DNA of 64,000 nucleotides. Source: Thermoplasmata archaeon. GTDB lineage: Archaea; Thermoplasmatota; Thermoplasmata; RBG-16-68-12; JAGMCJ01. This document shows positions 8,530 through 34,564 of this stretch, in pieces; positions within the stretch are counted from its first letter, which is position 1; each line of letters starts with the position of its first letter. Below the pieces are notes generated by a model that ran no database searches, was not told where the DNA came from, and saw only the letters and a program-made list of their open reading frames with translations. The translations under genes were made by a program, and so were the position numbers. The stretch is taken from contig JBHIFJ010000005.1 of assembly GCA_046761045.1 (NCBI GenBank), forward strand, positions 2,361 to 66,360, written 5' to 3'.

Positions 8530-10153
8530 ATCCTGCCCTCACGTCAATCTGTCTTTTCCATCGTTCCAGCAGGTCCTCGCCAGAGTAGCCCTTCTCTGTG
8601 AGTGACAAGAAAACGGAGTTGGCTAGCGATTGGAACTTCGCTGAGAGGACGCGACTCCCCAGTTTCCTTGCGAGACTGGCCACGTACCTCTTGCATTCCG
8701 CCCTCAAGTGGATACTCTCAAGGGCCTCCGCGTAACTCATTCCCCAGGAGTTCGCAATCTCCCGTATCCTTTGTGAGTCAGAGAGGAGGCTCTCGGTTTC
8801 GATGAGCGAGTCTCTCGAGATGCTGTAGTGCATGAGCTGCAGGAAGCTACCATCGCAGGACTCCTTGTTGAGCTCAGAGATCTCGATTACTCTTCGTCTA
8901 GGATTCAGGGTCCCTCGAGGCCTCAGAAGTCCGGCCACGATGACGATGTCAGTCGCTGAGAAGGACTGAGGAGGGATGCCGAGATCGTGGACCACCCGCT
9001 CATAAACACTTCTGGAGGAGCTCCCGTGTATCGTCCCGAGAACCGCCGAGCCAGCCGTCCCGACACGCATCGCCTCGTAAAGAGTCCGAGCCTCTCTGCC
9101 TCTCACCTCTCCGAGGACTATTGCAGACTCTCCGAGGCGCAACGAGACCCTGAGCGCTTCATCTGCCGTCGTTTCGCTCCCGGAGATTCCTGAGCATACG
9201 TAGAGGCTCTGGACCTTGTATCCGAGTTTCCTGAGCTCCGCGCAGGGCAACTCCAGCGTGTCCTCAATCGTCAGAATTCTCTGGCTTGTCGGGAATTCGA
9301 ACATCATAGCCCCGAGGAGCGATGACTTCCCCGCCCCGCGACTGCCCGTCACCAGGATTGTTGAGTTACCATCCATCAGGAAAGAGATGAGGCCGGCCGC
9401 AAGAGGTGTCATACTTCTGTGATAGACCAATCTCGTCAGGGTCCACGGGTCAGACGAGTGTCTGCGCAAGGCAAGAGCGATGCCATCCGGACTGAGTGGG
9501 GGACGCACGGCTGTCAGTCTTGCGTTCATGTCTCCCAAGTCCATCTCAAGAACGGGATTCCTCTCCGAAAACGGCCTCTTGCTCATGAGGAGGAGTTTCG
9601 AGACTATGTTCTTGAGACCTCCCTCATCCATGCGAATGTTGGAAACGCACTTCTGGTGAAATCTGTGCTCTCCGGCGTGTGCAACCGTGAGGTGTATGGG
9701 GACCATCTCGCATGGTGCATCTAAGAAGATGTCCTGGACGTTTGGGTCCGAGAGAAGAATCTCGAGGACTCCGAATCCCACGGAATTCCTCTCAATCATC
9801 TCAGCAAGATGGCGTGCCCTCATCATACGCTCGGCCTTTGCCATGGTTCTGGGCAGACGAAGGGCTATGAGGTCACTCGCCCGATTCTTCACGTAGCGCC
9901 TGACCTGCGAAAGATTCCCCAGATCGAGGATATCAGGCGGGATAGACCATATCTCCTCCACGACCTCCCAGAGAAGCGAGAGCTCGTCTTCCTTCACCTC
10001 GGATGAGGGTGGTGAAAGCCAGTACAGGAAGTCGGTCGAGTTGTCCATCTGATAGATGCTTATGCGTGATTCACCGACGGAGTAGCTCATGACGGCTTCA
10101 AGGTCAGGAGGGTCGCCTAGTATCCAAAAGGAGCTGAAGAAGGGTCTCCACAT
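8522..10153 (-). CDS. FlaI/TadA/VirB11-family secretion ATPase (type IV pilus or archaellum assembly ATPase).
   Basis: Walker A box ILVTGSRGAGKSSLLGAMM followed by an Asp box (RILTIEDTLEL). The size of 543 aa is typical of archaeal FlaI. Confidence 0.85.
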   Translation of the reverse strand: MWRPFFSSFWILGDPPDLEAVMSYSVGESRISIYQMDNSTDFLYWLSPPSSEVKEDELSLLWEVVEEIWSIPPDILDLGNLSQVRRYVKNRASDLIALRLPRTMAKAERMMRARHLAEMIERNSVGFGVLEILLSDPNVQDIFLDAPCEMVPIHLTVAHAGEHRFHQKCVSNIRMDEGGLKNIVSKLLLMSKRPFSERNPVLEMDLGDMNARLTAVRPPLSPDGIALALRRHSSDPWTLTRLVYHRSMTPLAAGLISFLMDGNSTILVTGSRGAGKSSLLGAMMFEFPTSQRILTIEDTLELPCAELRKLGYKVQSLYVCSGISGSETTADEALRVSLRLGESAIVLGEVRGREARTLYEAMRVGTAGSAVLGTIHGSSSRSVYERVVHDLGIPPQSFSATDIVIVAGLLRPRGTLNPRRRVIEISELNKESCDGSFLQLMHYSISRDSLIETESLLSDSQRIREIANSWGMSYAEALESIHLRAECKRYVASLARKLGSRVLSAKFQSLANSVFLSLTEKGYSGEDLLERWKRQIDVRAGYA

Positions 10154-20323: not shown

Positions 20324-22492
20324 ATGAGAAGACGCAGCCTCGCGGCAGTGATTCTCATATTCCTGGGCACATTTTCGCTTGCTTTCTCGCTCCTGCCTGA
20401 TAGCGCTCAGGCCATCACACACTATGTAGGTGGAGGTGGCCCCGGCAACTACACAACGATACAAGCCGCCGTTAATGCTGCCAACGCCGGTGACATCATC
20501 TATGTCTTCGGCGGAACGTACAGCGAAAACGTCATTGTATCCAAGTCACTATCTCTAATCGGAGAGGACAAGCAAGCAACCATAATCGACGCGGGTTCCA
20601 CCGGTAGCGCGGTTACCATAACGTCCGATTCAGTCAACATTTCTGGATTCACTCTGACGAACAGCGGGTCACTTGCCGGAGATGCTGGAGTGATTCTAGA
20701 TTCAGTGCATTACTGCACCATCACCGATGTCATCACGACTGGCAACACCGATGGTATCTTCCTATTCTCCTCGGGAACAAACACAATATCCCTCGTTGAG
20801 ACATACTCGAATTTCTGGAGTGGAATAGTGACGATGTTTTCAAGCAGCAACGTCATAGATAGGAACAATGTCCATTCCAACTTCTTCGGAATCACTCTGG
20901 ACCGCTCAAGTAGCAATAAGGTGCGCTGGAACAACGTGACAGACAACTTCAATCAGATTACCCTTTCTGGTGACTTCGCTAATGTCATAGCATATAATAA
21001 CATCTCAGACGGTTCACGCGGCATATGGCTCGATGATTCAGAAAACGCCATAATCAAGGAAAACAACATCTCCTCCCACACTCTCGTGGGCATACGATTT
21101 CAAGCCTCCCTTACGGCAACGCTGACAGGCAATGCGATGGTCGAGAACGGAATCCATATAGAGGGGGACTCAGTGCAGTACTGGAACACTCACGATATCG
21201 ATGATTCCAACACCGTGAATGGTAAGCCCGTCTACTATTGGAAGGATGCAACGGGTGGCATGGTCCCGTCAGACGCGGGTCAAGTGATATTGGCAAACTC
21301 CGCGAATGTGATAGTCCAAAATCAGAATATCACGAATACCACGACAGGAATTCAGCTGGGGTTCTCGTCAGGTAACACGATCGCGAACAACACGATTTGG
21401 TACAGCAACAATGGCATCCATATGGCATCGTCAGCGGGGAACTGGGTATACCACAATGACTTCTTCTTCAACTCGGCACAGGCCTACGACGGTGCCCAGA
21501 ACAACATTTGGGATAATGGCTATCCATCAGGCGGAAACTACTGGTCCGATTACGCAGGTCTTGACCAGTTTTCAGGACCCAACCAGGATCAACCTGGAAG
21601 TGACGGCATAGGCGATACCCCTCGCACCATAGACGCTGCCGACGAGGACAGATACCCCTTGATGTCTCCGTACTCGACTTCCGTACCCCCTGAGCCGCCG
21701 ACACTGCTATTTGTCAATCTGAGCGGCAAGGACTGGGAGAATGTCACGCTTACATGGTCACTATCCCCTGATGACGGATCTGGACTGGAATCCGTAGTCG
21801 GCTACAGGATCTATAGGAATGTGAGCTATAATCCTCAAGGACTGGGTTACTCACTCATCGCCACTCTTCCGAATCAGACTTCTGTCTTTGTCGACAACCT
21901 GTCTGGTGAAGGAGATCCAAGCGATTACTTCTACAGGGTTTGTGCTTTTGACGGATACGGAAAGGCGGGCTGCTCTGACGATCAAGCCGCTAAGTTCACC
22001 CGCCCACTTGCACAGGGGCCGAACCTGGTCTCCGTTCCTCTCATCCAATCCAACGAGTCCATAGAGGCCGTTCTCCGAACAGTCGATTATGACGAAACGT
22101 GGTACTACGACTCCTCCTCCCAAGAATGGAAATGGTACATGGCCTCCAAGGGCTACAGGAGAGGACTGTGGAACATGGATCACACAATGGGACTATGGGT
22201 GAACGTTACGGGCGACTGCAACCTCACCGTGGCAGGAATCGTTCCCAGCCAGACCACGATGTCCCTACGCGAGGGATGGAATCTCGTGGGGTTCCCTTCT
22301 TTCAATGCATCCTATGCTGTTTCGGACTTGAAGGCCGAAGTGGGAGCAGTGAGGGTGGAGGGATACATCTCCATGCCTCCATTCACGCCGTACATGTTGG
22401 AAGTTCTCGGCGATGGGGTGGCACTTGGGGCGGGATTCGGGTACTGGGTGAAGGTGGTGTCGGATATTGTTTGGGTACTCGATGCGATCTAG
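20324..22492 (+). CDS. Secreted right-handed parallel beta-helix (NosD/pectin-lyase-fold) surface protein with a C-terminal FN3-like domain and the shared C-terminal module.
   Basis: Signal peptide MRRRSLAAVILIFLGTFSLAFSLLPDSAQA. Repeated ...N.I..N... beta-helix rungs follow ITHYVGGGGPGNYTTIQAAVNAANAGDIIYVFGGTYSE. The C-terminus TLTWSLSPDDG...YRIYR...AKFTRPLAQG...GYWVKVVSDIVWVLDAI completes the match. Confidence 0.8.
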   Translation: MRRRSLAAVILIFLGTFSLAFSLLPDSAQAITHYVGGGGPGNYTTIQAAVNAANAGDIIYVFGGTYSENVIVSKSLSLIGEDKQATIIDAGSTGSAVTITSDSVNISGFTLTNSGSLAGDAGVILDSVHYCTITDVITTGNTDGIFLFSSGTNTISLVETYSNFWSGIVTMFSSSNVIDRNNVHSNFFGITLDRSSSNKVRWNNVTDNFNQITLSGDFANVIAYNNISDGSRGIWLDDSENAIIKENNISSHTLVGIRFQASLTATLTGNAMVENGIHIEGDSVQYWNTHDIDDSNTVNGKPVYYWKDATGGMVPSDAGQVILANSANVIVQNQNITNTTTGIQLGFSSGNTIANNTIWYSNNGIHMASSAGNWVYHNDFFFNSAQAYDGAQNNIWDNGYPSGGNYWSDYAGLDQFSGPNQDQPGSDGIGDTPRTIDAADEDRYPLMSPYSTSVPPEPPTLLFVNLSGKDWENVTLTWSLSPDDGSGLESVVGYRIYRNVSYNPQGLGYSLIATLPNQTSVFVDNLSGEGDPSDYFYRVCAFDGYGKAGCSDDQAAKFTRPLAQGPNLVSVPLIQSNESIEAVLRTVDYDETWYYDSSSQEWKWYMASKGYRRGLWNMDHTMGLWVNVTGDCNLTVAGIVPSQTTMSLREGWNLVGFPSFNASYAVSDLKAEVGAVRVEGYISMPPFTPYMLEVLGDGVALGAGFGYWVKVVSDIVWVLDAI

Positions 22493-24067: not shown

Positions 24068-24736
24068 TTGCATGTGAAGGCACCCTTGGAATGCGGGACC
24101 ATCGACGAGATGCTGGCCGGAGGGATTGAGGGCGGCTGCCTGACCCTGATATACGGCGAGGGTGGCAGCGGAAAAACAAACTTCGTCCTGCAGCTCGCGA
24201 GGAACATCGCCAGGGAGAAGAAGGTCCTCTTCATCGACACCGAGGGCGTTTCGATCGAGCGGTTGAAGCAGATGAGCGGGGAGGAGTACGAGCAGATCCT
24301 GAACAACATCCTCTTCTCGGAGCCCTACACGTTCAGGGAGCAGCAGAAGATAATCGAGAAAGCAGCCAATCTGGCCATCAAGAACAAAGACGTCGGTGCG
24401 ATCATCGTTGATTCTGCAACGACCTATTACAGGCTGACGAGGCTTGAGGACGAGTTCCGGGAGAGGAAGAACCTGGCCGATCAGGTGACGAAGCTGCTGA
24501 TGGTCGCGCGAACCAGGGATATCCCGGTCGTACTAACGAGTCAGGTGTACACGGACATAAAGACGGGGTCCTACGAACCGCTCGGAGGGCACCTGCTCTC
24601 GCACAACGCCAAGACCATAATCAGCCTGGAGAGGACAGGGCCTCACAGACGTCAGGCGGTGCTCATAAAGCACAGGCATTTGGCCGAGGGCCGCGTGGCC
24701 CCTTTTCTCCTCACAGACAAGGGCCTTGAGTGCTAG
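24068..24736 (+). CDS. radB: RadB (archaeal RecA/RadA paralogue, KaiC-like ATPase).
   Basis: 222 aa with the motif LAGGIEGGCLTLIYGEGGSGKTNFVLQLA (Walker A). Confidence 0.8.
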   Translation: MHVKAPLECGTIDEMLAGGIEGGCLTLIYGEGGSGKTNFVLQLARNIAREKKVLFIDTEGVSIERLKQMSGEEYEQILNNILFSEPYTFREQQKIIEKAANLAIKNKDVGAIIVDSATTYYRLTRLEDEFRERKNLADQVTKLLMVARTRDIPVVLTSQVYTDIKTGSYEPLGGHLLSHNAKTIISLERTGPHRRQAVLIKHRHLAEGRVAPFLLTDKGLEC

Positions 24737-25542
24737 GCCAGCGCCTTTTCGAGAATCTCCCTTCCCGGCTGCGTTGAAAGGATGTCGAGCGCCACCTCGC
24801 GGAAGACCTCCTCGACATTGTCACCTGTCCTGGCACTGGCGAAGGTGATGTTCGCCCTGATTGGAGCGACCACCTCTATGTCATCCCTGCTGAACTCGAA
24901 GTCATCGTGCTTGTCGGCCTTGTTGACGAGTATGTGGACGGGAACGCTCCCCGCTATCTTCAGCCCAGAGCCAATCCAGTCCTCCAGGCCCTCAAGGGTG
25001 GCCTTCCTCGTCACATCGCAGACGGCGATGATGCCCTGCGCACCGTGAAGATAGGAGTCCAGGAGAAGGTTCGCCAGTCCCTTGTTTCCCATGATGTCCC
25101 AGATGGTCATGTCCACGGTGACGTCCCTGCCATCCCTGGGATGCTCCACGGTTATCGTCTTCTTCGAAACCTTCGAGCCCATCGTCCTGAGATAGTCGTC
25201 ATCGAACTGGTCGAGCACGTACCTCCTGATGAGGCTGCTCTTGCCCACCGCCTTGTCGCCAACGAGGCAGACCTTCATCTTTGTCCTGTTCTCGTTTCCG
25301 ACCTCCATCGTGGAGAACCTGTGCTCCAAGCCGACCCTCTCCAATGCCAGCCTAATCTTCGTCAGCTTCTCCGCGATGTCTTCCAGGGCCACGGGGTCGT
25401 TCGATATCGCCTTCGGCCACTTCAGGATGAATGCCGACCTCCCCTTCAGTGGCATCCACTCGTCGTCCTTCATCAAGTCTATGAGCTCCTCCGGGAGGCT
25501 GCCGTTTTCCTCCAGCAGCAGACATGTGACCATTTCGGGCAT
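24733..25542 (-). CDS. Rab/Ras-like small GTPase carrying a ~95 aa N-terminal extension of unknown fold.
   Basis: G1 GDKAVGKS, switch-I RTMG, G3 WDIMG, G4 NKAD and G5 FASARTGDNVEEVF motifs are present. A TATATA box on the minus strand lies ~30 nt upstream of the start at 25542. Confidence 0.75.
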   Translation of the reverse strand: MPEMVTCLLLEENGSLPEELIDLMKDDEWMPLKGRSAFILKWPKAISNDPVALEDIAEKLTKIRLALERVGLEHRFSTMEVGNENRTKMKVCLVGDKAVGKSSLIRRYVLDQFDDDYLRTMGSKVSKKTITVEHPRDGRDVTVDMTIWDIMGNKGLANLLLDSYLHGAQGIIAVCDVTRKATLEGLEDWIGSGLKIAGSVPVHILVNKADKHDDFEFSRDDIEVVAPIRANITFASARTGDNVEEVFREVALDILSTQPGREILEKALA

Positions 25543-25570
25543 GCGGACCCACCACTCCGGTATGGTTGGC

Positions 25571-25580: not shown

Positions 25581-25628
25581 GTTATATACTCATTTCCGCC
25601 TCATTATCAGGCCTGATAATGATATGAG

Positions 25629-26615
25629 TCACCTCTTCCTTGAGAGCATGAAGTCGGAGGCCGCTAGCATGTTCTCCCTCAGTGGAGACGGAAGCTTCTC
25701 CAGCGTCCGATTGCACCTCTCCAAGAAGCCCTTGGCGATCTCCTCGGCCCCCTCGGCAGCACGATACTTCCTGAATATATCGAAAACCCTCTGCACATCC
25801 TCGTCCGTTGTCTCGGTGCGCGGCTTGTCCAGAATGTGGAAGAGCTCCTCCCTCTCCTCCTTCGTGCAGTTCTCAGACGCTATAACGACGAGAAGACTCC
25901 TCTTCCCCTCCTTGACATCGGAGCCCTTCTCGCCCCTTCCCTTTCCCATGGTCATGTCTATGATGTCATCCCTGATCTGGAACACGGGACCGATATGCTT
26001 TCCGTAGCTCTCTAGGGCGAGGAGGATCTCATCGGATGCCCCGCCAATGACGGCACCGCCCTGGACCGGGCATGCCAGATAGTATCCCGTCTTCTCGATG
26101 ACCGTCTCCAGGTACTCTTCCACGGTGAGGTCCCTTCGCTGGCGGGCAGAGATGTCCATCGCCTGGCCCTCACCTGTGTGGTTGACCGTATGCGTCAGCA
26201 GCTCGACAAGGCGCAGAACGCGGCCCTTCTCCACACCGAGCTCGAGGCTGCCCAATGTGGATTCGTACATCTTCGCGAATAGATAGTCACCGACGTTGAT
26301 TCCGTGCTCGAGGCCGTATTTCTTCCAGACAGAGGCTCTGTCGTGCCTCATCTCGTCTCCATCTTGTATGTCATCGTGAGTAAGAAGAAAGTTGTGCAGG
26401 AGCTCAGAGGCCACAGCGAACGGCATGGCCTGCTCCACGGTCCCGCCCAGGCTCTCGGACGCCAGGAGAGCGAGGACCGGCCTTATCCGCTTTCCGCGGT
26501 ACTTCCTGTCGTCTACATCGAGACCCAGCGCGTAGCGCAGCACGTCGTGCAGGTTGGGCACCTCCCTCTCGGTCCTGATGAACGCCTCGAGTTCCCTCTC
26601 GACATGGGGCACCAT
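25629..26615 (-). CDS. idsA: Geranylgeranyl / polyprenyl diphosphate synthase (trans-isoprenyl diphosphate synthase).
   Basis: First aspartate-rich motif LTHDDIQDGD and second FQIRDDIIDMT. The start was moved to MVPHVERELEAF (ATG 26615), because the Arg/Gly-rich upstream extension overlaps the idi gene in another frame. Confidence 0.8.
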   Translation of the reverse strand: MVPHVERELEAFIRTEREVPNLHDVLRYALGLDVDDRKYRGKRIRPVLALLASESLGGTVEQAMPFAVASELLHNFLLTHDDIQDGDEMRHDRASVWKKYGLEHGINVGDYLFAKMYESTLGSLELGVEKGRVLRLVELLTHTVNHTGEGQAMDISARQRRDLTVEEYLETVIEKTGYYLACPVQGGAVIGGASDEILLALESYGKHIGPVFQIRDDIIDMTMGKGRGEKGSDVKEGKRSLLVVIASENCTKEEREELFHILDKPRTETTDEDVQRVFDIFRKYRAAEGAEEIAKGFLERCNRTLEKLPSPLRENMLAASDFMLSRKR

Positions 26616-26662
26616 TTCGGTCAGATATAACTCGAAATCGTCGATGACCCTTCCCTGCGGGC

Positions 26663-27724
26663 TCAACCCACGACCTCCATCTCCTTGAGCCAGTTGGCGG
26701 TGGGTTCCCTGACGACGTACTCCTTCGCCGCCAGTTCCTCGACATCCGCTGAGCCTGTGAGGAACATCGCCGCCAGCAGTTCGTGTATTATTGCCTTGAG
26801 TTCGAATTCGACGGCCTCTGACGACTCCTTCGCGGCGGGCAGGAGGCGGGAGGCCATCCCCGCGCACGAGGCGCCAAGCACGATTGCCCTGGCGATATCG
26901 AGGCCGTTCTGAACGCCGCCGGTGGCGATGACGGGCAGTCCGACGTTCGCCCAGATAACAGAGACCGGTGTCGGTATGCCCCAGTTCCAGAACAGCTTCC
27001 CGAGCTCCTGCTTCCTCAGGTCATTCCTCTTCTTCGCCCGAAAGAACTCGACCGCGGACCAGCTTGTTCCCCCGAGTCCGCCGACATCGATGCCCACGAC
27101 CCCCGCCTTCTTCAGTGCGACGGCGACCTCTCGCGAGATACCAGCACCAGTCTCCTTGCCTATGACCGGGAAGACCCCCGCAACGGCGGATATGGCCTTC
27201 AGGCAGCCTCTCGCCTTCAGGTCGCCCTCGGGCTGCACGATCTCCTGAAGGAAGTTTAGGTGGACAGCCAGAACATCAGCGTCAATCATGGCAACCGCCC
27301 TCTCCGCGTCCTCGATGTTCAGGGGCTCCTCGCCTGGTTGTGGGATGAGCTGCGGCGCACCAACATTACCGATTCTGAGCGGGATATCGTGCTCCCTCAG
27401 GACAGAGTATGTGTCCTCCAGGGACGGGTCCTCGAGTGCCTGCCTCTGGCTCCCGACGCCCATGCCCACACCCACGGAGGCGGCTGCCTCGGCGAGGTTC
27501 TCGTTTATCTTGCGCGCCTCCTCAAACCCGCCGGTCATCGCGGATATGATGAGCGGGGCGTTGAGCTTCTTGCCGAAGATCTCGATGCCCGTGTCTATCT
27601 CGTCGACGTCTATCTCGGGCAGGGCCTTATGGATGAGGACAATGTCGTCCCAGTAGCGGTAGCTTGCGTCAACGTCCTCTTCCGACACTATCTCCACGTG
27701 CTCCTTCTTCCTCTCCTGAGTCAT
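26663..27724 (-). CDS. fni: Type 2 (FMN-dependent) isopentenyl-diphosphate delta-isomerase.
   Basis: 353 aa with IDI-2 hallmarks: ...LIISAMTGG... and a glycine-rich FMN-binding segment. Confidence 0.8.
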   Translation of the reverse strand: MTQERKKEHVEIVSEEDVDASYRYWDDIVLIHKALPEIDVDEIDTGIEIFGKKLNAPLIISAMTGGFEEARKINENLAEAAASVGVGMGVGSQRQALEDPSLEDTYSVLREHDIPLRIGNVGAPQLIPQPGEEPLNIEDAERAVAMIDADVLAVHLNFLQEIVQPEGDLKARGCLKAISAVAGVFPVIGKETGAGISREVAVALKKAGVVGIDVGGLGGTSWSAVEFFRAKKRNDLRKQELGKLFWNWGIPTPVSVIWANVGLPVIATGGVQNGLDIARAIVLGASCAGMASRLLPAAKESSEAVEFELKAIIHELLAAMFLTGSADVEELAAKEYVVREPTANWLKEMEVVG

Positions 27725-27725
27725 G

Positions 27726-28496
27726 CTATCTCCTCGATATCCTCGTCCCAGGGGAGCCGTGCCCCATAAGGAACTTCATGAGCCTACCATCCACGCTGCC
27801 GTTCATCACCCATGTCTCCACCCCCAGGTCAGCGATGTCGAACATGAGCCTGAGCTTCCTGAATATCCCGCCCGTCACGTCCGCCCGAGCGGTCTGGCCC
27901 TCGATGGTCCTGAGCGTGTCCCAGTCGAGCCTCTCGATTATCCCCGCGCCCTGAGCGGGAGGATAGCTCGGGTACACGCCATCCGTATCGGTGGCGAAGA
28001 TGGCCTTCTTGGGCTTGAACTCCTTCGAGAGCCACAGCATCAGATCATCGCCTGAGCAAATCGCGAACTTCCTCCTGGAATCGAGGACGACATCGCCGAA
28101 CGTGACCGGCATCAGCCCCAAGCCGATGTATTCCTTGAAGGGGCGCAGGTCCATCTCCTCCAGGGCACCATCGTTCAGCCGAACGATTGAGCTCGGCGGC
28201 AGAGACACCGGCTTGAGACCCTCGGCAATGAGAGCATCCAGGACCATGAGGTTCAATGTCTTCACGTCTCGCTGGACATGGGAAATGCCCGGAATCTGCG
28301 TCTCGTTGAGGTATCCCTCCTCGAGCCTGTGCTCCTTCGCCAGGATATGGCCGAACGAGCCTGCACCGTGGACGAGAATCATCTCCGCGCCCGCCATCCC
28401 GAGTTCCTGTGCGAGAATCTTCATCCTGTCGGTTCTGAAGGTCCTCAGCTGCGATTTGTCCGTTATCAGACTGCCGCCAAGCTTCACCAGCATCAT
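27726..28496 (-). CDS. ipk: Isopentenyl phosphate kinase (amino-acid-kinase fold).
   Basis: MMLVKLGGSLITDK...ILVHGAGSFGH matches the IPK N-terminal motif. It is 256 aa. Confidence 0.8.
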   Translation of the reverse strand: MMLVKLGGSLITDKSQLRTFRTDRMKILAQELGMAGAEMILVHGAGSFGHILAKEHRLEEGYLNETQIPGISHVQRDVKTLNLMVLDALIAEGLKPVSLPPSSIVRLNDGALEEMDLRPFKEYIGLGLMPVTFGDVVLDSRRKFAICSGDDLMLWLSKEFKPKKAIFATDTDGVYPSYPPAQGAGIIERLDWDTLRTIEGQTARADVTGGIFRKLRLMFDIADLGVETWVMNGSVDGRLMKFLMGHGSPGTRISRR

Positions 28497-28676: not shown

Positions 28677-29168
28677 TCAGGGTAGGGAATCTCGGGCCTG
28701 TGGACCAGTGGGATCGTCGGAAACACCAATCCCTCCCCCAGGCGTAGAATGATACCACTCAACAGCGATGTTCCCAAGATAGTCTTCGTCCAGGGCTGCT
28801 TTCTCTCCTGCAGGCTCCGTGGGTGGCCCCAATGGCATCGTGCCTGCATCGTTCGACTTCGGTCCTTCGCCGACGGCATTGACCGCGGTGACAGAGTAGT
28901 CGTACCACTGACCTGGCATTAGGCCTGCATCCGTATACGTTAACACATTGCCCACTGCGATTACCGTCTCATTGCCGAGCGTTCTCCTGTGGATTCTGTA
29001 GTTGGAGACCGGAAACCCGCCTTCGAAAAGCGGCGGTTCCCACGTAAGCGTAATCTGATAGTAGCCCTCCGCCGCACTCAGATTCCGAGGAGCCGAGGGC
29101 GGTAATGGAGATGGGATGAACGGATTCATGAGCGGGTATCTGTCCTTCGAATCTATCCCGCCGGGCAC
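28677..29168 (-). pseudogene. C-terminal continuation (FN3-like domain) of the beta-helix surface protein, separated from it by an in-frame TAG.
   Basis: Reading the minus strand across 29172-29174 gives GIGDVP-TAG-VVPGGIDSKDRYPLMNPF. This is collinear with GSDGIGDTPRTIDAADEDRYPLMSPY in the intact paralogue at 20324..22492. Confidence 0.5.
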
Positions 29169-29171
29169 GAC

Positions 29172-30806
29172 CTATGGAACGTCACCGATTCCATCGCTGC
29201 CCGGCTGGTCCTGGTTCGGCCCGCTCTTGTTGTCGGTACCGTTGTAGTCGCTCCAGTAGTTGCCGCCCGAAGGATAGCCGTTGTCCCATTCATTGCTTCC
29301 ACTGTCATCGAAGGCCTGAAGCGTGTTGTCAATGAGGATATTGTGATAGATGCGATTTTGAGAACTATCTTCGTGAGCATGAATGCCACGCTCATTGTCC
29401 GAGATGTTGTTGCTAGCGATGATATTGTCGTTGCTGAACTCGTCGAGGTAGATTCCTGCAAAGTAGTTGTCCGAGACCGTATTATTGATGACAGTGTTGT
29501 CATCCGATTCGACAATAAGGATTCCCCTCCAGATGTTCGAAGAAGCGTTGTTGTATGTGACGGCATTGTTATGGCTGGATTGACGGAGACTTATCCCGTA
29601 ATAGCCGGATGAAGCGGCGCTGCTATTCGTCACAGTATTGTTGTCGGAGTTATAGAAGACGATGCCACCGTAATCGTTCCACGAGGCGGTGTTATTAGCA
29701 ATCACGCTTCTCGATGAAAAGCCAAGCTCGATTCCCAGGGAGCCGGTGCTCACATTCAGATTCTCGACCACTACATCCGAGCAATTGGCGAGTATCACTT
29801 GACCGGCGTCAGCGGGAATGTATCCGCCCACTGTGTTCTTCCAATAATACACCGGTTTCCCGTTCACAGTGTTAGAGGTCTCAATGCTATGGCTATTCCA
29901 ATGCTCAAGAAAGCCAGACATGAACATTCCATCCTCAACGAGGGCATTGTCGGAGATCGTGCTATTGAAGGAGTGCGAGATAGTGATGCCAAACCTTCGA
30001 TTCCTGGAGATGAAGTTGCTGATCGCGGTTGTGTTTTCCGAGGCGAATATGTCCAATCCAAGATCGTTGTAGGAGATGTTGTTCTCGGCAACCACATTTC
30101 CCACGGAGAAGTCAACCATAATGCCGGCGCTATTGTTCGAGGCGGTGTTGTTGCGTACTGCATTGTTGTGGGAGCCAACGAGGTAGATGCCTAAGACGTT
30201 GTCGCTCGCGGAATTATTGACAATGGTGTTGTTACTTGAGTACGTGAGTTGGAGACCCTTCTCGCCGTTGGAAGGGAGTTTGCTGTTTACCACGCGGCAG
30301 TTTTCGACATAGTACAGTTCCACTGCGGAATCCCCTGGAGATGATCCGCTGTCCTTTACGGTAAACCCTGTGATGTTCACCCAATCGGCAGTCACGTAGA
30401 TTACGTCTCCAGTTCCGGTGCCATTGACTGACGTAGTGTCTCTGTCCACATCGGCCAGGGAAAGGGGCACATCTATCGTGATGTGTTCGTAATACGTGCC
30501 GTTGTATACGTAGACGGTATCGCCAGGATTCGCGTCGTCGATTGCGCCCTGAATCGTCGTGTAGTTTCCAAAGCCAATCCCGCCTACATACAGTGTGGTT
30601 GCCCCGACATTTTCAGGGAGGAATGTCAGAGTGAGGAAATAGGCACTCATGAATACAAGAAGTGCGACGATGTAGGCCACGTTCTTCATATTCTCCTCCG
30701 CATGGTCACCGCTGCAGCTGTGTTTGCGCCTATAATTCTTCTTGCGGAAGCTTCTCTTTCCCCCTAAAGAAATGTCGTCCATCCCTATGAGGAACGACAT
30801 TTCCAC
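29172..30806 (-). CDS. Parallel beta-helix (NosD-like) surface protein, N-terminal 544 aa, terminated by an in-frame amber codon.
   Basis: TTLYVGGIGFGNYTTIQGAIDDANPGDTVYVYNGTYYEHITI and many beta-helix rungs. It is paralogous to 20324..22492. Confidence 0.7.
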   Translation of the reverse strand: MEMSFLIGMDDISLGGKRSFRKKNYRRKHSCSGDHAEENMKNVAYIVALLVFMSAYFLTLTFLPENVGATTLYVGGIGFGNYTTIQGAIDDANPGDTVYVYNGTYYEHITIDVPLSLADVDRDTTSVNGTGTGDVIYVTADWVNITGFTVKDSGSSPGDSAVELYYVENCRVVNSKLPSNGEKGLQLTYSSNNTIVNNSASDNVLGIYLVGSHNNAVRNNTASNNSAGIMVDFSVGNVVAENNISYNDLGLDIFASENTTAISNFISRNRRFGITISHSFNSTISDNALVEDGMFMSGFLEHWNSHSIETSNTVNGKPVYYWKNTVGGYIPADAGQVILANCSDVVVENLNVSTGSLGIELGFSSRSVIANNTASWNDYGGIVFYNSDNNTVTNSSAASSGYYGISLRQSSHNNAVTYNNASSNIWRGILIVESDDNTVINNTVSDNYFAGIYLDEFSNDNIIASNNISDNERGIHAHEDSSQNRIYHNILIDNTLQAFDDSGSNEWDNGYPSGGNYWSDYNGTDNKSGPNQDQPGSDGIGDVP

Positions 30807-31386: not shown

Positions 31387-31878
31387 ATGAATAGGGATTA
31401 CTGTCCGGTTATCACGAAAGGAAACAAGACAACAAGAATATTATACAGATGTCGGCGATACTACAAAGGTGAGCTGAGCTCGGTCTCGAGAGGTGTGGCA
31501 TTGCGCAAAGCATCTTCCGAAAGCATCCTAGAATCCCAGTTGCTTGAGGATGTCTATCGTCTTCACGGAATCGATAGGCACGATGCGAGGATCATCGGAA
31601 TGACATACGAGAGCCCAAGGGATATGCTGACAATCAGCACGAATCTTGGAATTCCTATCTCGGAATGTTACGTTAGAGCAAAGAAGCTTTCCTCCTTGGG
31701 CCTTCTAAAGAAGCTCAAGATGTCATCGCCTTTCGTTCTAGGATCCAGAAAGAAAACGCTCTTCTACGCAAACAGGAACATGGTGGAAGTTGTGGTCATC
31801 GATGGAACGCCCAGGGTCAAAGTCAGGAGGACCCGAACACCGAACGGGTCCGTCTATCAATTCTCGATCATCTTTTGA
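31387..31878 (+). CDS. Hypothetical winged-helix (HTH) protein. The ORF is open from 30940 but the start is probably internal.
   Basis: A C-terminal HTH-like segment (DARIIGMTYESPRDMLTISTNLGIPISECYVRAKKLSSLGLLKK) lies in a low-G+C stretch. The N-terminal 150 aa of the long ORF look non-protein-like. Confidence 0.35.
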   Translation: MNRDYCPVITKGNKTTRILYRCRRYYKGELSSVSRGVALRKASSESILESQLLEDVYRLHGIDRHDARIIGMTYESPRDMLTISTNLGIPISECYVRAKKLSSLGLLKKLKMSSPFVLGSRKKTLFYANRNMVEVVVIDGTPRVKVRRTRTPNGSVYQFSIIF

Positions 31879-32084
31879 ACGAATTCGCCGGCTGATGTCA
31901 ACCGACGGTGAGCACGCGTCGCTGCTGATGTCGCCTCTGTTCGAACCAGCGGTATTCTCTGACTCAGAGCCTTCAGTCATCATCCTCTTTCCTGTAAAGA
32001 GTCAGTATCAGACTTGATAATGACGTCGAAGGGACTTAAGACCCAATCTGCAGTTTCCTCACGAAAAAGCATGGAGGTAGACAT

Positions 32085-32579
32085 ATGACGAACTTGAAAG
32101 GAAATATCTTGCTGTTTCTCAAAATCAGAAGCGGCTCCGTAGACGAGGCCGCCTCGGATTTGAGAGACAGGCCTGAGGTGACGGAGGTGAATCGACTGTT
32201 GGGGCAGTGGGACCTCGTTGTTTCGGGGAACTTCCCCGACTACGACACCTATAGAGCCTTTGCAGAGAACATAGAAACGAAGCCCTATTGCGACAGGGTC
32301 TCTGCCTATCCCTGCTTCCGGGAGTGGAGAAGGGAGAAGCCTTCCAAGACTCCGATAACGGGATGGGCGATGATAGGGACTAACAAGACGGAGGAGACCT
32401 TCGAGAAACTGAAGGACTACCAGCAGGTCTATTGGATGACATACACGACAGGAGACTACAACATAATCGCCCTCATGGGAGCAAGGGAACTCGACGAGCT
32501 GAGCAACTTCATGACCTCAGAGGTCCAAAGAATCCCAGGGGTAAAGAGAACGGAGACGCTTCCATCTCCGCAGGCGTGA
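32085..32579 (+). CDS. Stand-alone tandem RAM/ACT-like (Lrp/AsnC ligand-binding) domain protein.
   Basis: Two repeats of the RAM pattern (VTEVNRLLGQWDLVV...; VYWMTYTTGDYNIIALMGARELDELSNFMTSEVQRIPGVKRTET) with no N-terminal HTH. Confidence 0.5.
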   Translation: MTNLKGNILLFLKIRSGSVDEAASDLRDRPEVTEVNRLLGQWDLVVSGNFPDYDTYRAFAENIETKPYCDRVSAYPCFREWRREKPSKTPITGWAMIGTNKTEETFEKLKDYQQVYWMTYTTGDYNIIALMGARELDELSNFMTSEVQRIPGVKRTETLPSPQA

Positions 32580-32638: not shown

Positions 32639-32754
32639 AGTCGCAAGAGGACTGAAACTTCATCCCCGCACTGGACTTTGACACCATTTGGCAAAGTGAC
32701 AAAGCCATGGATTTATCAAGCTTGATTTTCTAGACGAAAGGTATTTGGGCGTCA

Positions 32755-33378
32755 GTGTCACAATCATTCTTGATAATGATGGCTGGCAGTGCCAAGAAGG
32801 ATGCCATATCGGCCTTGCTTGACCGATGTGAGAAGGAGCTTGAGAAGAATCCGAGAGATGTAGATACCCTCTTCACAAAAGGAGTGGTTTTCGCAAAAAT
32901 ACACAGATACGAGGAGTCCTTGCGCTGTCTAGAAGAGGTCATATCTATCAACCCGGACTATCCTGGCATTCATCGCTTGAAAGCCACGGTCGTCAGACTG
33001 ATGTCAAAGGAGACAGATACACCGACTACCGAGCCTGCTTTACTTGGAGACATAGAGGATATGGAGAGTGAGAGAAAGGGCATGGAAGATGGGTCTCTGG
33101 AGAATGGCGATCGGATTCCAGAGATAGTGGAGAGGATCCTCTCCCTTAAGACAAGAACCTTCACTGCGGAGAATCTCCATTTCGCCCTTGTGGCCGTAAT
33201 GGGATTCGATTACGAGCGCGAGGAGGTGGAGAAGTCTCTGGAAATTCTATCGACACCTCCACTCCGCATTCTGGAGAAGGATGGCGAGAGATACACCTTC
33301 ACAACGGATGCGAAGACCATCTTGTCAAGAATGGAACTTCTTGAGAGAGTTGCCAGAAAGAGCAGGGCAATGGCATGA
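32755..33378 (+). CDS. TPR-repeat protein.
   Basis: TPR-like helices (DTLFTKGVVFAKIHRYEESLRCLEEVISINPDYPG...). Confidence 0.5.
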   Translation: MSQSFLIMMAGSAKKDAISALLDRCEKELEKNPRDVDTLFTKGVVFAKIHRYEESLRCLEEVISINPDYPGIHRLKATVVRLMSKETDTPTTEPALLGDIEDMESERKGMEDGSLENGDRIPEIVERILSLKTRTFTAENLHFALVAVMGFDYEREEVEKSLEILSTPPLRILEKDGERYTFTTDAKTILSRMELLERVARKSRAMA

Positions 33379-33877: not shown

Positions 33878-34564
33878 GTGTCTCTTCTTTCGAGTTGTCA
33901 GCAGAATCAAGCGTCGATTTACAGAGGACACCTATGTCGACGTCGGAAGGGAGAACTGCTGAGCGTGCGAGAATTCCTTCCATATATGAGGGGTGCAGAA
34001 GAGCCACTTCCCCTCCTCGGCGAGATAGAGAAAGGACAGCCTGATGAGTTCCCGTCGTTGCTTCTTGATCTCTCGATCATCGACCTCGTTACCCACGGAT
34101 ATCAGGGTCTGTGCATTACAAGACTGCCCCCAAAGATGGTAAGGGAGCAATTGGGTCTTGAGAAAACGCCCGTGCTGTGGCTGAGCAGATTGTCGAGTGA
34201 AAAGAACAGCATAAGTCCTTGGCCCTTGGAAGGCATATCCGTAGCCGTTGAGCATTTCATATCGAGCGGCGAAAAGACCATCATCCTTCTTGATGGTGTC
34301 GAATACATCACATCTCACAACGACTTCAAGTCCATGTTGACCCTTCTTCACGACATCAAGGAAAGGATGGCAATGATGAATTCGATTCTTGTACTGCCTT
34401 TGGATTCGGAGGTCTTCGAAGAGAGGGAGTTTGCCCTTATCAGAAGGGATCTCGTTCAATTGCCCCCTTCCACGGAACAAGCCGCTCGTAAGAGAGCGGA
34501 TGGAATGGGCGAAGAGGAGTTCGAGAGAGCTATGACGAGGAAGCCGGCCGAGGCGGGAGCGTGA
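33878..34564 (+). CDS. Hypothetical protein (DUF835-like C-terminal domain). The start may be internal.
   Basis: The segment ...[42 protein letters not shown]... resembles the archaeal DUF835 domain. Confidence 0.35.

Follow-up and report, generated by a model that had tools for sequence, protein, structure and literature searches.

Outside eukaryotes and Asgard archaea, hardly any small Ras-like GTPase has an assigned function. We analyzed the gene for one such protein in a 64-kb window, by which we mean the whole stretch of 64,000 nucleotides from a Thermoplasmata archaeon (contig JBHIFJ010000005.1) whose numbering is used below. The gene lies beside radB, and its product carries an N-terminal extension ahead of the GTPase. 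The locus raises the question of what this extension is, how such a GTPase would cycle, and how its expression is set. By its sequence, the G domain belongs to a known, already annotated and uncharacterised archaeal Rab-like family. Relative to the literature that could be searched, what appears to be new is its fusion to an orphan domain of predicted ferredoxin-like fold in a narrow Thermoplasmata clade, a double substitution at catalytic positions, and a palindrome that is found in promoters across the family and also before a RAM-domain gene. The features of the protein are listed here; G1 and G3 were located by hand on the DNA, and the coordinates of G2, G4 and G5 come from codon arithmetic and the translation.

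24733..25542, minus: open reading frame (ORF) fusing an orphan N-terminal domain (N-domain) to a Rab-like small GTPase
25297..25542, minus: N-domain, residues 1-82, predicted to be ferredoxin-like (AlphaFold2 models and dN/dS)
25279..25296, minus: linker NENRTK, residues 83-88, from strand β4 of the N-domain to strand β1 of the G domain (model and alignment)
24772..25278, minus: G domain, residues 89-257, Ras/Rab-like (Pfam Ras, PDB sequence matches and Foldseek)
25237..25260, minus: G1 (P-loop), GDKAVGKS, residues 95-102, checked against the DNA
25183..25185, minus: G2 (switch I), T120 in RTMG, invariant in an alignment of 18 close orthologs
25084..25101, minus: G3 (switch II), WDIMGN, residues 148-153, checked against the DNA
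24913..24924, minus: G4 (guanine specificity), NKAD, residues 207-210; N207, K208 and D210 invariant
24829..24837, minus: G5, SAR, residues 236-238; S236 and A237 invariant

A Rab-like GTPase with substitutions at two catalytic positions

The ORF list of the window gives a complete 269-amino-acid reading frame with its stop codon on the minus strand. A first-pass annotation, made from the sequence, had read five G motifs in this frame (GDKAVGKS, RTMG, WDIMG, NKAD and SAR), and all are present in the translation. A deposited protein found by database search is 100% identical (P0001; collected proteins and loci are given P and L numbers) and is titled 'MAG: Rab family GTPase [Thermoplasmata archaeon]', where MAG stands for metagenome-assembled genome. 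The proposed membership in the Rab-like part of the Ras superfamily holds. Pfam Ras (PF00071) matches residues 90-254 with 87.6 bits against a cut-off of 21.6 (E=9e-25), and the TIGR00231 small_GTP model is passed as well (44.9 against 42.5). Pfam Roc matches at E=1e-22, Arf scores 30.2 bits compared with 87.6 for Ras, and Gtr1_RagA, with 16.6 bits, falls below its cut-off of 22. The best PDB sequence matches of the G domain are Sec4 (9e-19), Rab18, Ypt6 and a Thorarchaeota Rab (3e-18). A Foldseek search with the AlphaFold model returns Rab8, Rab1, Sec4 and Ypt32 at E of about 1e-13 and 25-29% identity, over the G domain only. With all five G motifs and profile scores above the cut-offs, the protein is a Ras-superfamily small GTPase, and its identity as a fusion GTPase is nearly certain.

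The G3 motif retains D149 and G152 and has Asn153 where the catalytic Gln belongs, as the annotation had noted. In the alignment with Sec4, K97 occupies the position of Ras G12, which is Ser in Rabs. Each of the 18 close orthologs (18/18) has both K97 and N153. The loss of the Gln is not special to this protein. The G3 core WDIMG is common to the family, and among the 125 proteins that we collected it continues as WDIMGE in 77, WDIMGQ in 21 and WDIMGN in 20. Because Glu and Asn prevail after WDIMG, loss of the catalytic Gln is a trait of the family and not of this gene.

At E<=1e-3 the database search found 819 relatives, in two layers. The first consists of 17 further clusters of 263-272 amino acids that have the N-terminal extension and full-length identities of 65-78%. 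Among the matches listed, members of the second layer are mostly about 175-200 amino acids long, about 45-58% identical and without the extension; their named sources are Thermoplasmata, Thermoplasmatota or "Methanobacteriota" MAGs. One collected protein, P0019 (315 amino acids), contains two complete WDIMGE GTPase domains head-to-tail in a single polypeptide.

Several features bear on whether the protein is a Rab in the strict sense. The closest solved relatives are Rabs, both by sequence and by Foldseek. The C-terminus reads ...ILEKALA and lacks the CC, CXC or CAAX motif of Rabs, the chain ending 12 residues past helix α5 in the full-length model. None of the 125 collected proteins (0/125) has a Cys within its last five residues, so no family member examined could be prenylated in the manner of a Rab. 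The N-terminus is a β strand of a globular domain in the models, and there is no amphipathic or transmembrane N-terminus. The RabF1-F5 motifs of Rabs are IGVDF, KLQIW, RFRSIT, YYRGA and LVYDIT. By eye, on the Sec4 alignment, the corresponding segments are MGSKV, DMTIW, GLANLL, YLHGA and AVCDVT, a partial resemblance confined to F2, F4 and F5 that does not amount to a RabF signature.

Other families fit less well. The protein has neither the N-terminal amphipathic helix nor the best match to the Arf profile that would mark an Arf/Sar GTPase, and neither the above-threshold profile score nor the C-terminal roadblock domain of Rag/Gtr proteins. A G3 motif without the conserved Asp marks MglA, as distinct from the Ras-like Rup proteins (PMC4316618). 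Here D149 is retained in WDIMGN, and no mglB gene is listed beside the GTPase genes in the loci whose gene tables were read. The annotation had allowed that the protein might prove to be an MglA; because of the G3 Asp it instead falls on the Rup side, as a prokaryotic Ras-like G domain with the Asp and without MglB coupling, an assignment that rests on this published criterion. The Rup survey excluded proteins of more than 240 amino acids and defined no Thermoplasmata group (Wuichet & Sogaard-Andersen 2014, PMC4316618). A 2016 study noted Rab-like sequences of Thermoplasmatales and Aciduliprofundum, which formed long branches without a placement (Surkont & Pereira-Leal, PMC4915359). Our literature search found no experimental work on these Rab-like proteins or on WDIMG GTPases.

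An orphan N-terminal domain of predicted ferredoxin-like topology

The extension was first described as a domain of about 95 amino acids of unknown fold, possibly roadblock- or longin-like, which would have brought MglA-MglB or Rag-Ragulator logic into a single chain. That a folded, selected domain is present is borne out; it is shorter, with about 82 residues and a six-residue linker, and the proposed fold finds no Foldseek or Pfam support. Over its first 86 codons, comparison with six orthologous genes gives proportions of nonsynonymous differences (pN) of 0.13-0.24 and of synonymous differences (pS) of 0.57-0.77. In the four pairs whose synonymous sites are unsaturated, the ratio of nonsynonymous to synonymous rates (dN/dS) is 0.12-0.17 in the N-domain, and it is 0.11-0.21 in the G domain. 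Judged from these substitution patterns, the N-domain is a translated domain under purifying selection.

AlphaFold2 (AF2), run on the full-length family alignment, gives a model with a mean predicted local distance difference test score (pLDDT) of 75 and a predicted TM score (pTM) of 0.71. Its low-confidence stretches are residues 111-124 and 154-165, at switch I and switch II; low pLDDT at switch I is expected of a mobile loop. The N-domain modelled alone, from 16 sequences, reaches a pLDDT of 86.7. Both models have the same secondary structure: β1 at residues 3-10, α1 at 18-26, β2 at 30-32/33, β3 at 37-41/43, α2 at 50-70 and β4 at 74-81. The predicted order, β-α-β-β-α-β, is ferredoxin-like. 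Both faces of the sheet are fairly hydrophobic, with V5/C7/L9, A37/I39 and M79/V81 on one and L8/L10, F38/L40/W42 and F76 on the other.

Structural matches to this fold are weak (E>=4e-3). Foldseek found no match to the N-domain at E<=1e-3 among 350,542 PDB chains. The best matches have E of 4e-3 to 4e-2 and TM scores of 0.35-0.58 and represent the generic ferredoxin-like fold class: ribosomal protein S6, PII-like/PstA, DUF77/MTH1187-like proteins, class III cyclases, Cas2 and an aspartokinase chain. When the N-domain alignment was searched as a profile against the PDB, noise only was returned (E>=0.05), and hhalign detected no similarity between the N-domain profile and the tandem-RAM protein of the window described below (probability 0.3%). 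No ligand-binding motif could be identified in the domain.

Roadblock domains have the topology α-β-β-α-β-β-β, and longin domains β-β-α-β-β-β-α-α. The top 50 Foldseek matches of the N-domain include no roadblock or longin structure, and a Pfam scan of the domain gave no match, Robl_LC7 included. We considered a roadblock or longin identity for the domain and rejected it on the predicted topology, the Foldseek result and the missing Pfam match.

The domain is rare. Among 1.84 billion representative proteins, a profile search picked out six clusters in all: the family itself, three clusters of a divergent fused form (P0121 and P0122, of 302 amino acids, and P0123), and P0124 and P0125, which are stand-alone proteins of 91-92 amino acids (E of 1e-4 to 3e-4; P0125 is marginal at E=2.7e-4). 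Because the search gave these six clusters only, there are no further domain partners at this sensitivity. The divergent fused form is also represented by P0022 and P0068 from the first database search. Close copies occur in 6 of 185,579 GTDB species genomes, all of them Thermoplasmata or Thermoplasmatota MAGs. Trp29 is the sole residue that is invariant across all N-domain groups aligned. In a neighbour-joining tree of the G domains, both fused groups fall into one clade of 25 sequences, three short proteins among them; this tree, which carries no support values, is compatible with a single fusion event for both N-domain groups. As far as its homologs can be traced, the N-domain is a rare, lineage-restricted sequence orphan.

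One ortholog, P0018, seems at first to be missing strand β1. Its start was mis-called in the database (a TTG read as Met; L011, 321-345). The true ORF begins eight codons upstream with MSEMVTCLLL, which restores β1; the upstream frame is MSEMVTCLLLEE.

A conserved palindrome in the promoter

The GTPase gene is separated from the stop codon of the polyprenyl synthase gene by 86 bp. On the coding strand this gap reads TCATTATCAGGCCTGATAATGA GGCGGAAATGAG TATATAA ... GGAGTGGTG ... ATG and contains these elements:

25603..25620: palindrome ATTATC-AGGCCT-GATAAT (core TATC-N6-GATA), centre 69 bp upstream of the ATG
25582..25598, minus: core promoter, a CGGAAA tract resembling a B recognition element (BRE) followed by the TATA box TATATAA, centred 43 bp upstream of the ATG
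25550..25558, minus: Shine-Dalgarno (SD)-like GGAGTGGTG, ending 7 nt before the ATG

Sixteen nucleotides lie between the palindrome and the TATA box. Across the orthologs examined, the half-sites (A/G)TTATC and GATAA(T/C), the GCGGAAA tract, the TATA box and an SD-like GGAG(T/C)GGT are conserved. The core promoter is nearly invariant, and the sequence farther downstream is variable. The 6-nt spacer of the palindrome is free to vary (AGGCCT, GGACCC, AAGTCT, AACTTG, AGCTTT and AGACCC in orthologs). An own promoter had been suggested for this gene, and the presence of the TATA box, the BRE-like tract, the SD-like element and the palindrome in every ortholog examined supports it as a prediction. 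We also considered an RNA hairpin or terminator and rejected it, the palindrome lying upstream of the TATA box and offering a weak, AU-rich stem of 6 bp. Several ortholog copies are asymmetric at their outer positions (ATTATC...GATAAC), and no T-tract follows. Because of its position, the asymmetric copies and the lack of a T-tract, the palindrome is best taken as a DNA site.

The element recurs beyond this gene. Exact TATC-N6-GATA sites number three in the whole window. A search for the longer pattern with one mismatch gives six strand-matches, that is three sites, compared with 0.28 expected. The three sites are the GTPase promoter, an intragenic position at 9931 and the region upstream of a gene at 32085..32579:

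32006..32019: second exact copy of the TATC-N6-GATA element (32004-32021 in the longer form), centre 72 bp upstream of the tandem-RAM gene

The gene at 32085..32579 (plus strand) encodes two Lrp/AsnC-type RAM domains (Pfam AsnC_trans_reg, E=1e-20) without a helix-turn-helix (HTH) domain, and its palindrome has the same geometry as that of the GTPase gene.

In nearly every family gene examined the palindrome, usually RTTATC-N6-GATAAY, stands immediately upstream of the TATA box. It is present in the window and at loci L001, L006-L009, L011-L015, L017, L018, L021, L022, L024 and L026. It precedes the RAM orthologs of L021, L022 and L026, the divergent N-domain GTPase genes of L006 and L021 (one mismatch each), and genes in the short-paralog arrays described below (3/4 in L007, 3/3 in L008 and 3/3 in L024), where it lies just upstream of a TATA-like box. 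The distance from palindrome to start is about 50-82 bp in most paralogs and 31 bp in one. The element is thus found again in distinct lineages and in paralogs whose proteins are just about 40-50% identical. We quantified this in 181,720 nt from which duplicate loci had been removed: 20 of the 23 genes of the family or its associates have an exact palindrome within 110 bp upstream (<=110 bp), compared with 0.07 expected, and 20 of the 25 exact sites fall in these 23 upstream windows, a count that overstates the independent observations because common ancestry links many of the 23 promoters.

From these occurrences, the GTPase gene and the gene for the RAM-domain protein appear to be members of one regulon that spans the family, and the shared palindrome suggests one dedicated regulatory circuit. 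The palindrome makes such a regulon definable and its transcription factor searchable. Two candidates for a general palindrome binder were rejected, their homologs being missing from the compared loci. For the HTH protein beside the RAM gene of L022, neither the window nor L021 has a homolog, and the window also lacks a homolog of the ribbon-helix-helix protein of L007. The latter is encoded at 3022-3339 of L007, is 65 amino acids long, and has an overlapping double palindrome (GTTATCATTATCGATAAGGATAAT) and a TATA box upstream of its gene.

The tandem-RAM gene and its neighbours

In two independent contigs, L021 (1181-2990) and L026 (1-1196), the RAM gene is divergently paired with a gene for a 302-amino-acid N-domain GTPase of the P0121 type. 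A metagenome scan with the single RAM protein gave no match, and a scan with the RAM alignment gave one contig. An ORF of about 163 amino acids lies beside the RAM gene both in the window (31387..31878, plus) and in L026 (1307-1799, where it looks frameshifted). It has no Pfam match and contains an AsnC-type HTH-like stretch, IDRHDARI..ISTNLGIPISECYVRAKKLSSLGLLKK, from which its product is a possible candidate for a DNA-binding partner.

Just downstream of the RAM gene, a gene for a tetratricopeptide repeat (TPR) protein (32755..33378) has copies of the palindrome with one or two mismatches flanking its start (32714-32731 and 32762-32779). The homologous gene of L021 has an identically placed pair (3108 and 3150). 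About 1.3 kb downstream of the RAM gene lies a gene for a DUF835 protein (33878-34564, plus). DUF835 has been described as an inactivated KaiC-like signalling domain (PMC5847659). In L007 (3340-5753), a HisKA_7TM-DUF835 protein and a KaiC-like ATPase are encoded divergently upstream of the GTPase array.

Genomic context

The GTPase gene has the following neighbours in the window:

24068..24736, plus: radB (TIGR02237 recomb_radB, E=2.4e-67), convergent with the GTPase gene
25629..26666, minus: polyprenyl synthase gene (Pfam), with the 86-bp promoter region between it and the GTPase gene
26663..27724, minus: gene for an IDI2-like flavin mononucleotide (FMN) enzyme (Pfam)
27726..28496, minus: isopentenyl-phosphate-kinase (IPK)-like gene (Pfam)

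The order IPK, IDI2, polyprenyl synthase, GTPase, with radB convergent and then a major facilitator superfamily (MFS) transporter, is found in all P0001-type loci examined. The flanking proteins are 64-92% identical across these loci and the GTPase 66-78%. This synteny may reflect shared ancestry, because the genomes are close relatives. In the window, the coding regions of radB and the GTPase gene share 4 bp where their 3' ends meet; in L009 a gap of 93 bp lies between them. The annotation's pairing with radB is thus accurate as a matter of adjacency; a functional link is unsupported, the two genes being convergent and the arrangement having been seen in one narrow clade only.

Other members of the family have other neighbours. 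The divergent N-domain GTPase gene of L006 (P0068) lies between genes of the pyruvate:ferredoxin oxidoreductase (POR)-like/ferredoxin type and acyl-CoA dehydrogenase/electron transfer flavoprotein (ETF) genes, and the P0121-type gene adjoins the RAM-domain gene. Short paralogs form tandem arrays of three to four GTPase genes directly upstream of a LonB protease gene in three contexts: L007 (6001-10640; CP070767, a 1.99-Mb genome record), L008 (4702-8690) and L023-L025 (3718-7777). The palindrome is absent upstream of the LonB genes behind these arrays. Our literature search found no description of GTPase arrays upstream of LonB. A tblastn search found no second GTPase paralog in the window.

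A roadblock or MglB partner, for which the annotation had advised a search, is encoded beside none of the family GTPase genes in the loci whose gene tables were read. Pfam hits among ten small gene-like ORFs of the window are to PTPS, archease, L10e and DUF835, and nothing there is roadblock-like. The stand-alone N-domain gene in L018 (919-2701; P0125, 92 amino acids) has a palindrome 61 bp upstream of its start. It is divergent to genes for CBS, V4R and Robl_LC7 proteins, with the Robl_LC7 gene about 1.2 kb off, and AMMECR1 lies downstream.

Two gene calls around the locus deserve mention. The polyprenyl synthase is over-extended in the ORF list (25629-26867, 412 amino acids); orthologs have 345 amino acids, with a start that overlaps the IDI2 stop. 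RadB has 222 amino acids in the ORF list and 216-220 in public gene calls. The locus is also flanked by large beta-helix-like repeat proteins and an Fn3 protein (20324-22492, plus; 29172-30806, minus; 28677-29168, minus), which share long near-identical stretches, for example NTVNGKPVYYWK and GNYWSDY..GPNQDQPGSDGIGD. Among these, the Pfam scan covered the Fn3 protein only.

A proposed regulatory switch and its alternatives

How might such a protein work? The overall picture that we give somewhat better than an even chance is of a soluble, non-lipidated, Rab-like GTPase from a large, uncharacterised WDIMG family of Thermoplasmata/Thermoplasmatota. The mechanism that we put forward for it, with a similarly slight leaning in its favour, is a slowly hydrolysing, transcriptionally controlled regulatory switch with an N-domain that probably serves to dock a partner, a ligand or another protomer. 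The protein would bind GTP and act as a conformational switch. The G12 and Q61 positions of Ras have established catalytic importance for hydrolysis. Because Asn153 and Lys97 occupy these two positions, intrinsic hydrolysis is predicted to be slow, and the protein would be insensitive to an arginine-finger GTPase-activating protein (GAP). With slow hydrolysis, the GTP-bound "on" state would therefore depend for its termination on a partner, on dimerisation or on turnover of the protein, and how much of the switch is present would be set mainly at transcription by a putative palindrome-binding factor.

For the N-domain, the analogy is with ACT, RAM and PII modules, ferredoxin-like domains that typically dimerise and bind small ligands at their interfaces. 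By this analogy it could be a platform for docking, dimerisation or the sensing of a small ligand. It is unlikely to supply a catalytic residue in cis, because the six-residue join is at the N-terminal end of the G-domain β1, far from the nucleotide. In the model, because both faces of its sheet are fairly hydrophobic, the face that is free of helices probably lies against the G domain or another protomer. What the N-domain does and how the protein hydrolyses GTP are guesses at this stage.

Several points weigh against the proposed switch. The descent shared by many of the 23 promoters lessens the weight of the palindrome count, the palindrome could serve a repressor as its operator instead of being an activator site, and the Glu found at the Gln position in most family members may still support hydrolysis.

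The strongest competitor, which we consider unlikely but credible, is a GTPase-deficient pseudo-switch that stays GTP-bound and is controlled by abundance only, through palindrome-dependent transcription and proteolysis. The eukaryotic atypical GTPases Rnd and RhoH, which are permanently GTP-bound and controlled by abundance, provide the model. The invariance of K97 and N153, the dedicated and strongly conserved promoter element, and the placing of short-paralog arrays directly upstream of LonB in three contexts are all consistent with it. However, other family members have Gln or Glu, so some of them probably cycle, and the LonB genes are without the palindrome, their adjacency being no proof of proteolytic control. 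A pseudo-switch is also not truly exclusive of the slowly hydrolysing switch that we prefer.

A broader reading takes the WDIMG GTPases of Thermoplasmatota, with the arrays by LonB, the dispersed N-domain paralogs and the tandem-RAM protein, which is of an amino-acid-sensor type, as a single TATC-N6-GATA regulon in which each gene would have a promoter to itself. The protein of the window would then be an arm of a nutrient- or metabolite-responsive network with the N-domain as its sensor or coupling module. We hold this to be rather improbable. Were the network metabolite-responsive, archaea would have invented GTPase-based nutrient signalling independently, with a logic analogous to that of Rag/Gtr signalling but with unrelated accessory domains. 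Were it not, the protein would be an ordinary annotated "Rab family GTPase" with an extra domain. The locus offers three handles on the WDIMG family: a lineage-specific fused domain of a sensor or docking type, two substitutions at catalytic positions that predict unusual cycling, and a defined promoter element.

A tie between the GTPase and its neighbours, in isoprenoid and membrane-lipid synthesis or in recombinational repair through radB, is improbable. The constant gene order in every P0001-type locus examined would be expected of such a tie, but those genomes are close relatives, with flanking proteins 64-92% identical and the GTPase 66-78%. The GTPase gene also has its own promoter with a different regulatory element, radB is convergent and stands 93 bp away in L009, and the divergent N-domain GTPases occur in the unrelated contexts of L006 (POR, ferredoxin and acyl-CoA dehydrogenase) and L021 (RAM).

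The database name and the best sequence and structure matches would suit a bona fide membrane Rab acting in vesicle or membrane trafficking. We regard this as very unlikely, given the missing prenylation Cys in all 125 proteins, the N-terminus that is neither amphipathic nor transmembrane, the partial RabF motifs (MGSKV for IGVDF and GLANLL for RFRSIT) and an identity of 25-29% only.

Hardly more can be said for a roadblock- or longin-like N-domain, which would turn the protein into a fusion of the MglA-MglB or Rag-Ragulator kind that contains its own GAP or platform. The fusion to an α/β domain, and the position of the marginal stand-alone homolog P0125 near a divergent Robl_LC7 gene with V4R and CBS genes, would accord with it. 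The predicted β-α-β-β-α-β order, the Foldseek and Pfam results, the G3 Asp that MglA lacks, the Gtr1_RagA score below its cut-off and the lack of roadblock genes beside the family GTPase genes in the loci whose gene tables were read leave this reading, on the model, largely refuted.

Finally, an annotation artefact with the true start at Met89 and 88 untranslated codons upstream has a next to negligible chance: Met89 does align with the start of the paralogs of roughly 180 amino acids, but the upstream 86 codons have dN/dS of 0.12-0.17 with pS of 0.57-0.77, a conserved SD-like element and ATG are found at M1, the palindrome lies 69 bp from M1 and so within the usual paralog range, the region folds confidently in the model, and divergent homologs occur both fused and stand-alone.

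Comparison with known systems

Rabs (Sec4, Rab8, Rab1, Ypt32 and the Thorarchaeota Rab 7ezb) share with this protein the G-domain fold, at a TM score of about 0.75-0.8 relative to the target, and the five G motifs. Unlike them, at 25-29% identity, the GTPase has no prenylation Cys, only partial RabF motifs, Asn for Gln, Lys for Ser, and an additional N-domain. The Rup proteins and the Thermoplasmatales 'Rab-like' proteins are similar in that they are Ras-like, retain the G3 Asp, show no MglB coupling and are experimentally uncharacterised. Group 1 Rup proteins are likewise without the catalytic Gln (PMC4316618). However, neither the N-terminal fusion nor the promoter palindrome was found described in the reports on these groups (PMC4316618, PMC4915359).

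MglA-MglB is similarly a prokaryotic small GTPase system in which hydrolysis probably needs help. MglA is without the G3 Asp and its gene adjoins that of the roadblock protein MglB, whereas this GTPase has the Asp, has no MglB gene next to its own, and is fused to a domain whose predicted fold is not that of a roadblock protein. Among single-domain modules, ACT, RAM, PII-like/PstA and DUF77/MTH1187-like domains resemble the N-domain in predicted topology and in their size of about 80 residues, but there is no detectable sequence similarity and the structural matches are weak (E>=4e-3). The Rag/Gtr GTPases with Ragulator also join a GTPase to an α/β domain, and the shared regulation with the RAM gene offers a possible link to an amino-acid sensor. 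However, the roadblock dimerisation domain of the Rag proteins is C-terminal, while the extra domain of this GTPase is N-terminal and predicted to be ferredoxin-like.

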